Below, piece after piece: positions 37,545 to 41,126 of a stretch of DNA of 64,000 nt (its first letter is position 1; each line of letters starts with the position of its first letter). The translations under genes and the position numbers were made by a program. Origin of the DNA: a bacterium. Lineage in GTDB: Bacteria; Patescibacteriota; Minisyncoccia; UBA6257; WO2-44-18. The notes beneath the pieces are model-generated. The model searched no databases and had not been told where the DNA came from. It was given only the letters and a program-made list of their open reading frames with translations. The stretch lies in contig JAUSKF010000004.1 of NCBI GenBank assembly GCA_030646995.1, positions 84,404 through 148,403 of the forward strand. The letters are read 5' to 3'.

Positions 37545-39305
37545 CTACTCGCTCACTTCTACGGCCCCGCCCATGCCCGGGTTTAAATGGTCGTGATACT
37601 TCCAAGAACCTGCCTTTTCAAATACAAAAGAATAAGACTCCCCCTCGCTTAAACCGCCCAGGGAATCAAAGCCCGGTAAAACTAAATGGGTTGGGTGCGA
37701 CGCCGAAGCCGGCCAGTGTGGACGAATATCTTTATTCAACCAGGTAACTTTCGCGCCAGCCGCAACTTGAATCATCGGAGGCTCAAATCCGGTGGTAGTG
37801 ATAAAGACCGTAATTGATTCCGGCTGAAGAACGGAGGTAGTTTTAATGGGCACATGGCCGATTGCTTCATTGGCCGGAACAGAATTCAACGCTTTGGGAA
37901 CTTCAATCGATTTAGGATTTTCTAAAGCTCTAAAAAATTCTTCAATAGTAGAAAGAAGAATCTTAACTGTCCGCAGGGAAGCCGCGATGCTTTCCGGAGC
38001 CTCTTCTCTTTCGATTGATTTAGCCAAGGCAACAATTCTTCGCTCGGCCTCGCTTAGCAAAGAGAATAGTTTCGGATTCTGCTCTTTAGTAAAGTCGGAC
38101 TTATTTACCTCGGAAAGCCAAAAGTCATATACCTTATTAATATTTTCCAAATCACTCTCGGCATCCGATATATCCGGATTCAGCTGATTAATCGCATTTT
38201 TTAAAGCGGCCTGGGCGGCGGTAGCCTGTCCGAAAGCTCCTCCATAATTACCTTCTTCTAAAAACTTCTCGGCTTGCAAAAGACCGAATTTTGCCCGCTC
38301 CACCAGCTCCTTGGGAGCGTTTTTTACGGATACCCGCTCACTAATCATCTCTTCCACCCTGGCCAGCAAGTCTTGCGCTTCGGCCATGGCCTGTTTGGCC
38401 CGTTCTTCGCTGATGCCTCCGGCATCTTCAATCTTGGATAAAATTCTCTGGCGAATAATATTTAATTCGTTACGCAATGCCGAGGTAAGCACTTTTTCTC
38501 GAACTTCATCAATAAGCCGTAATCGACGCAAACGATCTCCGGACAACCCGCTTAAATCCCCCAATTCCCCGCCAGCCAATACTAATCCCTCCAATTTTCC
38601 ACCAAATTTCAAAAGTAAATCCTCGCGTAGAAAAGAAACGGATTTTTCCGCTTCTCCTGAAAGCGCTTCTCCTAAACGATCCGCCAAATCGGCGGCCCGC
38701 AACTCTCTGAAGGGATCGTTAAGCTCCTGAACCTCCAAAAGAAATTGAGCCTTGAAGTCTCGTGGGTTAACCAACCGAATCGGCGCCTGCGCCAAAGCAG
38801 CTGCCAAGGAATCAACCGCTTTTTCTATTTTCTCTAATGAAGCTTTTTCATTCGAATATTTATTGGACAAATCTTCCAGCAATCGGAAGTGGCGCAATCC
38901 CTGTGAAATCAAATCCTCCGAAATAGCCGACAATTTGGAGCTTCCGAGCTCGTCTTTGATGGCCTCGAGATTTTCCATCAGCCGGGAAAGGCTATCCAAA
39001 TAACTATCCAATGCGCGATCAATGGCAAAAAGATTGCCGGTGGCAATTTCCTCCAGCTTCTTAAGTTCTGCCGCTTTTTCGTTCAAAACATTCAACTCCA
39101 ACTGGGCACGATTGCTGGCGCTAGCCGAGAGTAACTTGCGGAAACCCCGTCCCCATTCTTTCAAAAAATAGAAAGGATTCGAAGGCAAAAGACCGGAGCT
39201 TTGGATGCCCAAATCACCCCCTTCTTGAGCCAAAAGGAATGCCTGCGGGACCGTTATAGACAATGCAACGGCCGCCGTTATAAGTATCTTATGTAGTTGT
39301 TTCAT
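37545..39305 (-). CDS. Exported DUF5667-like helical protein with C-terminal cupredoxin
   Basis: Start MKQLH, signal peptide, GLLPSNPFYFLKEW, HWPASASHPTH, YHDHLNP. Confidence 0.8.
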   Translation of the reverse strand: MKQLHKILITAAVALSITVPQAFLLAQEGGDLGIQSSGLLPSNPFYFLKEWGRGFRKLLSASASNRAQLELNVLNEKAAELKKLEEIATGNLFAIDRALDSYLDSLSRLMENLEAIKDELGSSKLSAISEDLISQGLRHFRLLEDLSNKYSNEKASLEKIEKAVDSLAAALAQAPIRLVNPRDFKAQFLLEVQELNDPFRELRAADLADRLGEALSGEAEKSVSFLREDLLLKFGGKLEGLVLAGGELGDLSGLSGDRLRRLRLIDEVREKVLTSALRNELNIIRQRILSKIEDAGGISEERAKQAMAEAQDLLARVEEMISERVSVKNAPKELVERAKFGLLQAEKFLEEGNYGGAFGQATAAQAALKNAINQLNPDISDAESDLENINKVYDFWLSEVNKSDFTKEQNPKLFSLLSEAERRIVALAKSIEREEAPESIAASLRTVKILLSTIEEFFRALENPKSIEVPKALNSVPANEAIGHVPIKTTSVLQPESITVFITTTGFEPPMIQVAAGAKVTWLNKDIRPHWPASASHPTHLVLPGFDSLGGLSEGESYSFVFEKAGSWKYHDHLNPGMGGAVEVSE

Positions 39306-39478
39306 AGTAATTCCAGCTACACCTTGTTGAGAGCAGAACTTGCCTGCCGAAGGCATGGCTGGAGGCAAAAAGCTATCTAAAATGGGTAGATTTGGACTCT
39401 GCCCAACAAAAAAGGCCTTAACAGACCTTAGGGATACTATATCACAAAGGGTATCGGAAAACAATCCTCTTTGGGGAA

Positions 39479-40040
39479 TAAAAAAGCCCCCGTCTGCGTG
39501 AGCAAGCGGGGGTAAATCTGGGTCGCGTGGTAGCGGGTTGGGGGCGTAAGCCTCGCCATTGTCCTGCCCATCGGCAGGCATCGCGCTACCGACGCAACCT
39601 TTTCGAGAAAACTGCGCGCAGTCCGCGGTGTGGCCCCACCGCGGTGTAGAGGCCACTCATTCGCCTCTATGTTCCGGCGAGCCCCTGAGGGTACTCTATT
39701 CTCTCCGCGCCATCCAATTAAGCGGAGTTCTATAAGGCCGGAATTGACACGCACCACTCTTGTGATGCGGCTGCCAGGGTGGCTGCGCGCGCCCACCTGC
39801 ACCAAAAAGGATCCTTGTCCCTCGCGTAGATCATCAGACCTTACGCAAGGGACTTGTCCCATACATTAGAAATGTACGGTCTCTAACACTACAGTCATTC
39901 ACTAAAAGCACTTCGTTTTTCTAGCTTTATGGAACACACTGCGAAGCCCTAATCCCCCTTTATAGCGGGATGGGCAAGCCCGCCTGAGGCGGGTAAATAA
40001 AAGACCCTTTTTGATGCGGGTGGACTACTTAACGTTCTAG
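39479..40040 (-). ncRNA. Candidate large structured ncRNA 2 (about 400-560 nt)
   Basis: Consensus promoter, about 10 abutting hairpins, terminator ACCCCCG...CGGGGG-CTTTTTT. Confidence 0.65.
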
Positions 40041-40045
40041 GAGAG

Positions 40046-40074
40046 ATTATAGCGTATAACCTAATTCTTGTCAA
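40046..40074 (-). promoter_or_regulatory. Perfect consensus sigma70 promoter
   Basis: TTGACA-17-TATAAT. Confidence 0.85.
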
Positions 40075-40311: not shown

Positions 40312-40411
40312 CCGGATGACGTGTTCGCGCTAGTTTAGCGGGCGGCATCGCTTGGGATCAATCATCGCTGTTAGTTGCCCGCAAGGATCGCGACGCGAAC
40401 ACGCTGATTCG

Positions 40412-41014
40412 TTACTTGTTTGTTGAATCCTCAGCGGGAGTGTTCTCTCTGCGGATGCGATCCACGATCGCCTTGCGCTCCCGCCGGTTTCTTTCTGCCT
40501 CTTGATAGCCACACTCCACTTTTTCCAAATCGACCCTATCCCAATACGCCATTCGCTCCCAAACCTCGAACGGGACGCGCACATAGACATCGTCCCCGTC
40601 GGGGCTGATGAGTTGCGCCACAGACTCCCGCGGATCGACGAGCTGAAAGAGCTTGACCCTCTTCACCCGGTAACCGTCATAGTCGAGCATCTGTCGAAGC
40701 GTCAACTCCGGCCCGCGACGCGCCCGGAAAAATTCACCGAACTCGCCGAAGTACCAGATGCTGAACGCAAGCGCGAAGACCCCGGTGGAAATTAGCGTTG
40801 CAGGATGCGTGCCTACCGCCTTCAGCTTCGCCAGCGGCTTTCGGAAAGGGTACATGGCCACACCCACAACCTTCATGAAGGCGTTGCGCAGCCAGCCATT
40901 CCTCTGCTCCAGCATTCCTTCCAGCTCATCAATCCGCCTCTGCTTCTCGGTGCACAACTCCACATAATCCGGCTGGTCGACATACTTGGAACCGTCCTGC
41001 GGGGCTTCACTCAC
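40412..41014 (-). CDS. Hypothetical single-TM orphan protein
   Basis: GTG start after AGGAGG; TTGACG-17-TAATAT promoter. Confidence 0.7.
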   Translation of the reverse strand: MSEAPQDGSKYVDQPDYVELCTEKQRRIDELEGMLEQRNGWLRNAFMKVVGVAMYPFRKPLAKLKAVGTHPATLISTGVFALAFSIWYFGEFGEFFRARRGPELTLRQMLDYDGYRVKRVKLFQLVDPRESVAQLISPDGDDVYVRVPFEVWERMAYWDRVDLEKVECGYQEAERNRRERKAIVDRIRRENTPAEDSTNK

Positions 41015-41126
41015 AGCTTTCCTCCTTGTAAGGGACTGGCGAGATATTAGCATGTCAAACTGAATTCGTCAAACTATAAAAATCCCTGCCGGCAGGCAGG
41101 CCCTTCAATAAGAACAAAGCGAACGA

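Follow-up and report, generated by a model that had tools for sequence, protein, structure and literature searches.

What is transcribed from a consensus promoter when no evident gene follows it? The question is raised by a site in the 64,000-nucleotide stretch of DNA analysed here (the window), which belongs to the 751-kb, 98% complete genome of an ultrasmall, Patescibacteria-type bacterium (G000; the other four genomes of the genus are G001 to G004). On the minus strand, what we take from the translations to be dnaG and rpoD are followed by an orphan gene of 213 aa, then by the stretch in question and by a gene of 586 aa. The initial annotation had described a perfect consensus promoter, a large structured RNA with no credible open reading frame, and a strong terminator. 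The promoter is as described (Table 1), and is one of seven perfect promoters in G000, where 0.16 would be expected from base composition; the other six each have an ATG within about 80 bases, with a clear Shine-Dalgarno sequence in four. One of the seven, at C3:144801 (minus strand), stands back to back with the gene for RNase P RNA, and the gene it drives encodes a small protein.

The homologous units in the other genomes carry TTGACA and TATAAT boxes in G001 and G003, a near-consensus promoter in G002 and a TATAAT box in G004. An A is found seven bases past TATAAT in all five genomes, which makes 40038 the likely start and gives an RNA of about 560 nt; as read from the sequence, the likely transcript spans 40038 to 39479. 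Its leader begins with AGAACGTT in all three genomes that have the 5′ module described below as domain A. The terminator was also borne out, with a hairpin at 39512–39487 and a U tract extending to 39479; the stem contains unpaired bases, and was hence missed by a simple terminator scan. Every homologous unit closes with a hairpin and a U tract. A weaker hairpin and U tract near the promoter had cast doubt on the 5′ end, but this sequence is the 5′ arm of a long helix (40025–40000 with 39816–39791) and forms a competing structure of only −3.8 kcal/mol when taken alone; the doubt is removed, and the start is placed at about 40038.

The 562-nt stretch is predicted to fold with a free energy of −267.5 kcal/mol (z = −8.74), and none of 100 shuffled sequences is equally stable. 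Many intergenic regions of the repeat-rich G000 genome fold as stably per base, and it is therefore not the fold alone that is distinctive, but its conservation. All of the stems initially listed are present in the sequence and five of the six occur in the predicted fold (mean pair probability 0.95–0.99), although not all are simple hairpins: TTCCGGC/GCCGGAA and GGTTGCGT/ACGCGACC both close multi-way junctions, and ACTGC/GCAGT is a local palindrome that loses to a longer helix (39790–39783 with 39621–39614). In the predicted fold the RNA is composed of three modules, domain A at the 5′ end, domain B, and domain C before the terminator. The strongest feature, absent from the first list of stems, is the closing helix of domain A (pair probability 0.98), in which a C-A mismatch and a G-U pair are kept among homologues. 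The 14-nt loop of the conserved arm of domain A is unpaired in the predicted fold and has no partner that is kept across homologues, and we regard this arm as the best candidate for a protein-binding site. Domain B has a possible GGTGG/CCACC pseudoknot, whose formation would compete with pairing at the end of the domain A helix; this pairing could form in G000, G001 and G003 (5, 6 and 7 bp respectively), without covariation.

Table 1. Features of the locus, in window coordinates.
Feature	Position	Strand	Remarks
Small membrane-protein gene (213 aa), upstream neighbour	40412..41053	-	Rare family; tandem copies here in relatives
Degenerate C-like structure, outside the RNA	40319..40404	-	After the small-protein gene, directly before a terminator (40311-40280)
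Perfect sigma-70-type promoter, TTGACA-17-TATAAT	40046..40074	-	12/12
Predicted start A (40038) and 16-nt single-stranded leader beginning AGAACGTT	40023..40038	-	Predicted, unmapped
Domain A	39791..40025	-	22-25-bp closing helix (40025-40000 with 39816-39791) around a multi-way junction
Small inserted palindrome	39979..39993	-	Absent from G001 and G003 (alignment)
Conserved arm of domain A	39898..39934	-	Two short stems, internal loop, 14-nt purine-rich terminal loop
Hairpin, apparent degenerate copy of a dispersed ~30-bp palindrome family	39859..39879	-	Present in G001, absent from G003
Domain B	39614..39790	-	8-bp closing helix around four arms; helix probability 0.95
Domain C	39521..39599	-	Three-way junction directly before the terminator
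Intrinsic-terminator-like hairpin and U tract	39479..39512	-	-17.4 kcal/mol
DUF5667-like gene, downstream neighbour	37545..39446, start 39305	-	Weak DUF5667 match below cut-off

There are open reading frames in the stretch, one of 141 aa (39862–39437) and a 117-codon extension of the DUF5667 frame from 39656, but neither is conserved or has a Shine-Dalgarno sequence, and the upstream extension has a different length in each genome. That the RNA is an mRNA for the 141-aa frame or another small protein gains something from G001, which shares the ATG and the frame for 27 codons. The G001 frame stops after those 27 codons, however, G003 has no start, the ATG lies within a stem, and the shared part differs at loop positions, mostly by non-synonymous changes; we consider a coding role extremely unlikely.

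The RNA has no match in Rfam 15 at gathering cut-offs, a tRNA being the only match in the window. In E-value mode there are weak matches to unrelated families of 12–22 bits in G000 and G003, and of at most 26 bits at the G001, G002 and G004 loci, all far below the cut-offs. RNase P and tmRNA, whose hallmarks, with those of SRP RNA, had been reported missing, are indeed elsewhere in G000 (C3:144831–145183, 100.1 bits to RF00010, and C2:48163–48478, RF00023, respectively). SRP RNA gives no Rfam match, and Ffh (PF02978) is found in none of the five genomes of the genus and in 14 of 14 controls. Y RNA was rejected likewise, with Ro60/TROVE (PF05731) in 0/5 of these genomes, which are 85–98% complete. 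The assignment as an unassigned structured non-coding RNA is upheld by the lack of an Rfam match, by homologues that keep the pairing without a conserved reading frame, and by the promoter and terminator kept in relatives. The literature searched holds no description of this RNA; supplements of motif screens could hold the motif, including those of preprint 10.64898/2026.10.21.760802, in whose main text Patescibacteria and CPR are absent. Another non-coding RNA candidate lies at C2:93264–93892 of G000, where a near-consensus promoter is followed by about 500 GC-rich, ORF-poor folded bases beginning AAACGTT.

In all five genomes of the genus a folded unit running from promoter to terminator precedes the DUF5667 gene on the same strand, and each has a different set of modules. 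The unit of G000 combines A, B and C over 560 nt, and that of G003 (497 nt) joins a compact A to a rearranged B (B′) and C. In G001, a B-like unit of about 180 nt with a promoter of its own is followed by a 473-nt unit in which A is joined to an unrelated domain, E. In G004 (295 nt) a C-like module accompanies another unrelated domain, D, and the 189-nt unit of G002 consists of D alone. The initial idea of one large conserved molecule thus gives way to domains that occur in differing combinations, with some hairpins being inserted copies of dispersed palindromes. The homology of A and of C is clear between G000 and G003, and that proposed for B with the G001 unit and for C with the G004 module is based on short motifs, topology and position. 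The closing helix of B also stands under its own promoter in G001, where BLAST finds no homology between domain B and the unit, and the G004 module is a divergent full-length look-alike of C (10.4 bits, E 2.2). Domain A is about 230 nt long with its junction hairpins in G000 and G001 and about 111–128 nt in the compact form, which in G003 consists of a closing stem, an open 13+14-nt bubble and a terminal stem-loop. Its position is constant, always 16–17 nt past the start in the three genomes that have it, and C or C-like copies lie directly before a terminator in four of four cases. The degenerate C-like structure downstream of the small-protein gene in G000, whose fold was computed, is matched in BLAST by the G004 C-like module (E 7e-4) and has no match to the domain C model at E ≤ 5. 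The sequence GCAGGTG ends A and begins B, with one copy in G000, two in G003 and copies on separate units in G001, and this short shared sequence suggests that A and B were joined by recombination. Domain D (L069 760–900 in G004; L066 2693–2825 in G002) is likewise structured and uncatalogued; it has a conserved internal-loop stem and stands at the same locus behind the same type of promoter.

To gauge conservation we compared domain A with neutral sites. Of 75 core bases (the two helix arms and the central arm, selected because they are conserved), 68–70 are identical between any two of G000, G001 and G003. Fourfold-degenerate sites identical to G000 number 39 of 116 in G001 and make up 42–55% in three genes in G003, or 34–55% overall, and we conclude from the difference that domain A is under selection. 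The helix arms are identical at 21–22 of 22 and 14–15 of 16 positions, with one two-sided change, and the conserved arm at 32–34 of 37. Over the whole A alignment of G000 and G001, paired positions are identical at 108/114 and unpaired positions at 81/112 (Fisher p 4e-6); for G000 and G003, in whose alignment part of the G003 3′ arm is misaligned, the figures are 52/62 and 43/63 (p 0.06). The closing helices of domain C in G000 and G003 are identical at 30 of 31 bases, and we take the core of C, too, to be under selection. Covariation in the three domain A sequences is not significant, with 97% of cells pairing, two two-sided pairs, and 117 of 500 shuffles scoring as high. In a tree of 12 DUF5667 proteins the genus falls into three branches (G001, G000 with G003, and G002 with G004), which the tree does not order. 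G001 and the G000/G003 branch, both of which hold domain A, are about 1.3 changes per column apart; domain A is thus probably old in the genus, although no order of gain and loss follows from the tree. Promoter spacers and linkers have diverged among the A-bearing genomes, which argues against recent transfer.

This conservation bears on the possibility that the locus is a selfish or non-functional patchwork of palindromic mobile elements behind a strong promoter left by a lost small-protein gene. G000 is rich in strongly folding dispersed repeats; two hairpins of its RNA and one in the G003 unit, the latter with a short flanking duplication, match dispersed palindromes; module content turns over within a single genus, similar promoters drive small-protein genes, and a DGR template-like copy lacking a reverse transcriptase (RT) is present at the G001 locus. 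We nonetheless think a patchwork rather unlikely, because G000 has one copy each of the cores of A, B and C, domain A is conserved far above neutral sites, its distance from the start is kept in three genomes, and its non-standard helix pairs are kept. Apart from the small inserted hairpins, the several copies expected of a dispersed repeat or MITE are not found, and the dispersed repeats of G000 sit outside the promoter and terminator, just beyond the promoter. The palindrome at 39979 has a near-identical copy elsewhere in G000 and in G004. The inserted palindromes sit in junctions, which appear to tolerate them, and the cores are unchanged.

The family of ~30-bp palindromes has five copies in G000 (C2:67473, C4:102313, C6:39152, C6:57207 and C6:59420), and one copy is inserted in a DGR leader and is missing from related leaders. 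The 11-mer that opens domain B (39792–39782, minus strand) occurs twice in G000, the other copy (C1:56217, minus strand) forming a hairpin loop in a DGR leader that is kept in G004. We rejected a link to DGRs drawn from the shared hairpin and 11-mer, since the hairpin is one of the dispersed palindromes and chance may account for the 11-mer. The DGR template-repeat-like copy of G001 occupies, with its leader, the first 350 bases of the L068 minus strand, directly upstream of the RNA units, where the contig ends with no RT behind. In G003, L190 (C52) has an open reading frame of 651–694 aa with a weak RT match (E 9e-6), which differs from the RTs found in the DGRs of these genomes.

Comparison with other genera places the RNA in a variable setting. 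At six loci from other genera, rpoD lies directly before the DUF5667 gene in four, about 0.9 kb upstream with other DNA between in one, and the remaining locus has a different context; the RNA is therefore part of a genus-specific variable insert, which also holds one to four copies of the small membrane-protein gene and, in G001, the DGR template-like copy. The small membrane protein has no Pfam match and 15 matches at E ≤ 1e-10 among 1.8 billion representatives. Members occur in four of the five genomes, with no match in G001, and those of relatives are 23–28% identical to the window copy; the sources of the related proteins label them as Patescibacteria group. This single-membrane-span family forms tandem arrays of up to four behind rpoD (window 40412–41053, minus strand; L066 498–2629; L192 4241–5147). 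A structural model (pLDDT 69.5), in a search that barely covered the small beta domain, gave no match at Z ≥ 5 or E ≤ 0.001, and coiled-coil matches only, with no known RNA-binding fold among them.

The downstream DUF5667-like gene, whose C-terminus is presumably cupredoxin-like (a label read from the sequence, with no database match behind it), has its own extended −10 box (39441–39436, minus strand), directly 3′ of which is a leader with a short hairpin and U tract (39429–39405, minus strand). This leader (39446–39405, minus strand) is attenuator-like, and its layout is common to the genus and to other genera of the family, including those without the RNA. The whole 560-nt unit could alternatively act in cis, as a leader or attenuator governing read-through into the DUF5667 gene, since it lies directly upstream on the same strand in all five genomes and its GGTGG segment can pair in two ways. 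Such a role is improbable, because the gene keeps its own promoter and hairpin leader where the RNA is missing; moreover, although the gene downstream is the same, the modules upstream of it are entirely different, the terminator sequences vary between genomes, and no kept anti-terminator was seen.

A further alternative is that the conserved inverted repeats act as DNA, either as single-stranded hairpins or as recombination sites of a variable island. The sequence of the long inverted repeat is kept, the locus is variable, and the stretch also folds with DNA parameters. Against this, a promoter and a terminator on one strand frame the unit in every case, that strand keeps its G-U pairs, and no homologue was found in the phage and plasmid collections searched; we regard a DNA element as very improbable. 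The sense strand folds better than the antisense by 30, 24 and 9 kcal/mol in G000, G003 and G001 respectively, and in six dispersed repeats the difference is at most 11 kcal/mol either way. This is a weak test, because the G002 and G004 units, which lack A, show no strand bias and the RNase P RNA of G000 folds better as its antisense.

Searches for homologues found domain A in three genomes of the genus, with the pairing kept, and no homologue outside it in the collections covered. A BLAST-type search of 61 relatives matched only promoters, terminators and short palindromes outside the genus. The helix pattern identified no new homologue in 21 genomes of the family, nor among 2 matches in viral contigs and 23 matches without the second arm in metagenome contigs. 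The loop pattern gave 42 matches over GTDB, comprising two known homologues and 40 without domain context, and none in viral contigs; with three mismatches allowed, it gave 9 matches outside G000 in 401 genomes of the phylum, against 5 control matches, and none was scored by the model. Model R1, applied to 41 relatives and to 150 genomes of the order, identified no new homologue, nor did model R2 in 150 genomes or the D+C DNA in 301 genomes, and a C-hairpin pattern found no C-like context outside G000 and G003 in 401 genomes. These samples overlap, and no model was built from more than two sequences; R1 recovered G000 at an E-value of only 2e-4, and at genome scale R2 failed to detect the G004 module, so that distant homologues may have escaped detection.

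A base-pairing role finds little support: in an antisense scan of seven segments against G000, six were within the range of three shuffles each, and the seventh, the 5′ arm of C (−33.8 kcal/mol, compared with −27.6 to −30.0 for shuffled sequences), is paired in the fold. By elimination we arrive at protein binding. Our preferred interpretation, held tentatively and at somewhat less than an even chance, is that this conserved single-copy element produces a stand-alone, stable 560-nt RNA, made of three modules that fold independently, which likely binds a protein in trans through the shape and loop of domain A. Judging from the promoter, transcription from 40038 would be constitutive and at a high level. 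Domain A would be the working part, consistent with its fixed distance from the start, and its shape and loop would bind protein such that the RNA acts as a decoy or a scaffold; domain C, given its place before terminators, may protect the 3′ end. Modules could be shuffled by recombination at GCAGGTG between A and B, and the insertion of small palindromes into junctions would be tolerated. Recognition by a protein is suggested because sequence is kept on both helix strands together with a fixed mismatch and the partnerless 14-nt loop. No partner protein was found; the matches of the neighbouring small protein include no known RNA-binding fold, and its family has no match in G001. RNA polymerase is the first candidate, since domain A in its compact form resembles 6S RNA in outline, no 6S was seen in the order, and the locus lies behind rpoD.

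The origin of large structured RNAs is open, and those known so far appear only in a final, conserved folded form; five sister genomes with different combinations of a few modules would offer a snapshot of RNA domain shuffling. That a reduced 751-kb genome keeps the RNA under one of only seven perfect promoters suggests a real function, although the weight of this is limited by a narrow distribution (one genus, with A in three genomes). A bolder proposition, which we put forward as unlikely, is that Patescibacteria evolve large RNAs by domain shuffling, with exchangeable modules behind rpoD that are linked through short sequences they have in common and give transcripts of 180 to 560 nt, and with A as a new decoy of RNA polymerase or another protein that replaces the apparently missing 6S. 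At 128 nt, the compact domain A is short enough to be synthesised, probed and assayed for binding.

How does this RNA compare with known elements? Dispersed palindromic or MITE-like elements include REP, ERIC and bcr1. Like these, the locus has very stable nested intergenic hairpins, a few of which belong to such families; unlike them, its core modules are single-copy, occupy one fixed locus with their own promoter and terminator, and are conserved over a saturated neutral divergence. In retron msr-msd RNA a long inverted repeat closes a multi-hairpin domain next to a reverse transcriptase, and the inverted repeat that encloses domain A is similar. A retron RNA was rejected, as there is no adjacent RT, the two RTs of G000 are in a DGR context with the nearest about 68 kb away on C1, and no G follows the 5′ arm.

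The raiA motif RNA is a further large orphan bacterial non-coding RNA with which this one can be compared. OLE, ROOL and GOLLD share with it a size class of 500–600 nt, many helices and junctions, the lack of a reading frame and an unknown function, and GOLLD has a more and a less conserved half, as here (passages of PMC12286853). It differs from OLE, ROOL, GOLLD and the raiA motif in having no Rfam match, no tRNA-island or prophage context, and a distribution of one genus in the data searched; the domains are exchanged between sister species, with five module sets in five genomes, and no covarying tertiary contacts are evident, covariation not being significant with three sequences. An RNA-only multimer of the OLE, ROOL and GOLLD type would fit the size and helix density, and self-complementary hexamers are kept (AACGTT in the unpaired leader and GCGCGC in B), palindromic loops being described as bridging OLE and GOLLD multimers in a passage of PMC12286853. 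We think a multimer very unlikely, because no loop-loop partner is kept, GCGCGC is paired intramolecularly in G000 and G001, and the swapping and loss of whole domains would be hard to reconcile with a closed cage.

The closest comparison for domain A is with 6S (RF00013) and Ms1 RNAs, and a specific form of protein binding would be that A is a lineage-specific decoy of this kind, which binds RNA polymerase by mimicking an open promoter. The compact form in G003 has the closing stem, open centre and terminal stem-loop, within a stand-alone unit under a strong promoter that follows rpoD; 6S RNA exceeds the cut-off in none of 121 genomes of the order, although the model is not sensitive and scores in only 5 of 14 control genomes; and new polymerase-binding RNAs unlike 6S exist, according to a passage of PMC11077062. 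Several differences make this distinctly unlikely. None of the five genomes of the genus has an RF00013 match at E ≤ 1, and compact A, at 111–128 nt, is shorter than the 6S rod with its open bubble, for which the same source gives about 180 nt and 160 nt at the shortest. The centre of A is filled by hairpins in two of the three homologues (G000 and G001), two more domains follow it, and it is missing from two of the five sister genomes, unlike a housekeeping regulator. We conclude that the kind of RNA is known and the family is new, and that shuffling of its domains among sister species is the unusual part.
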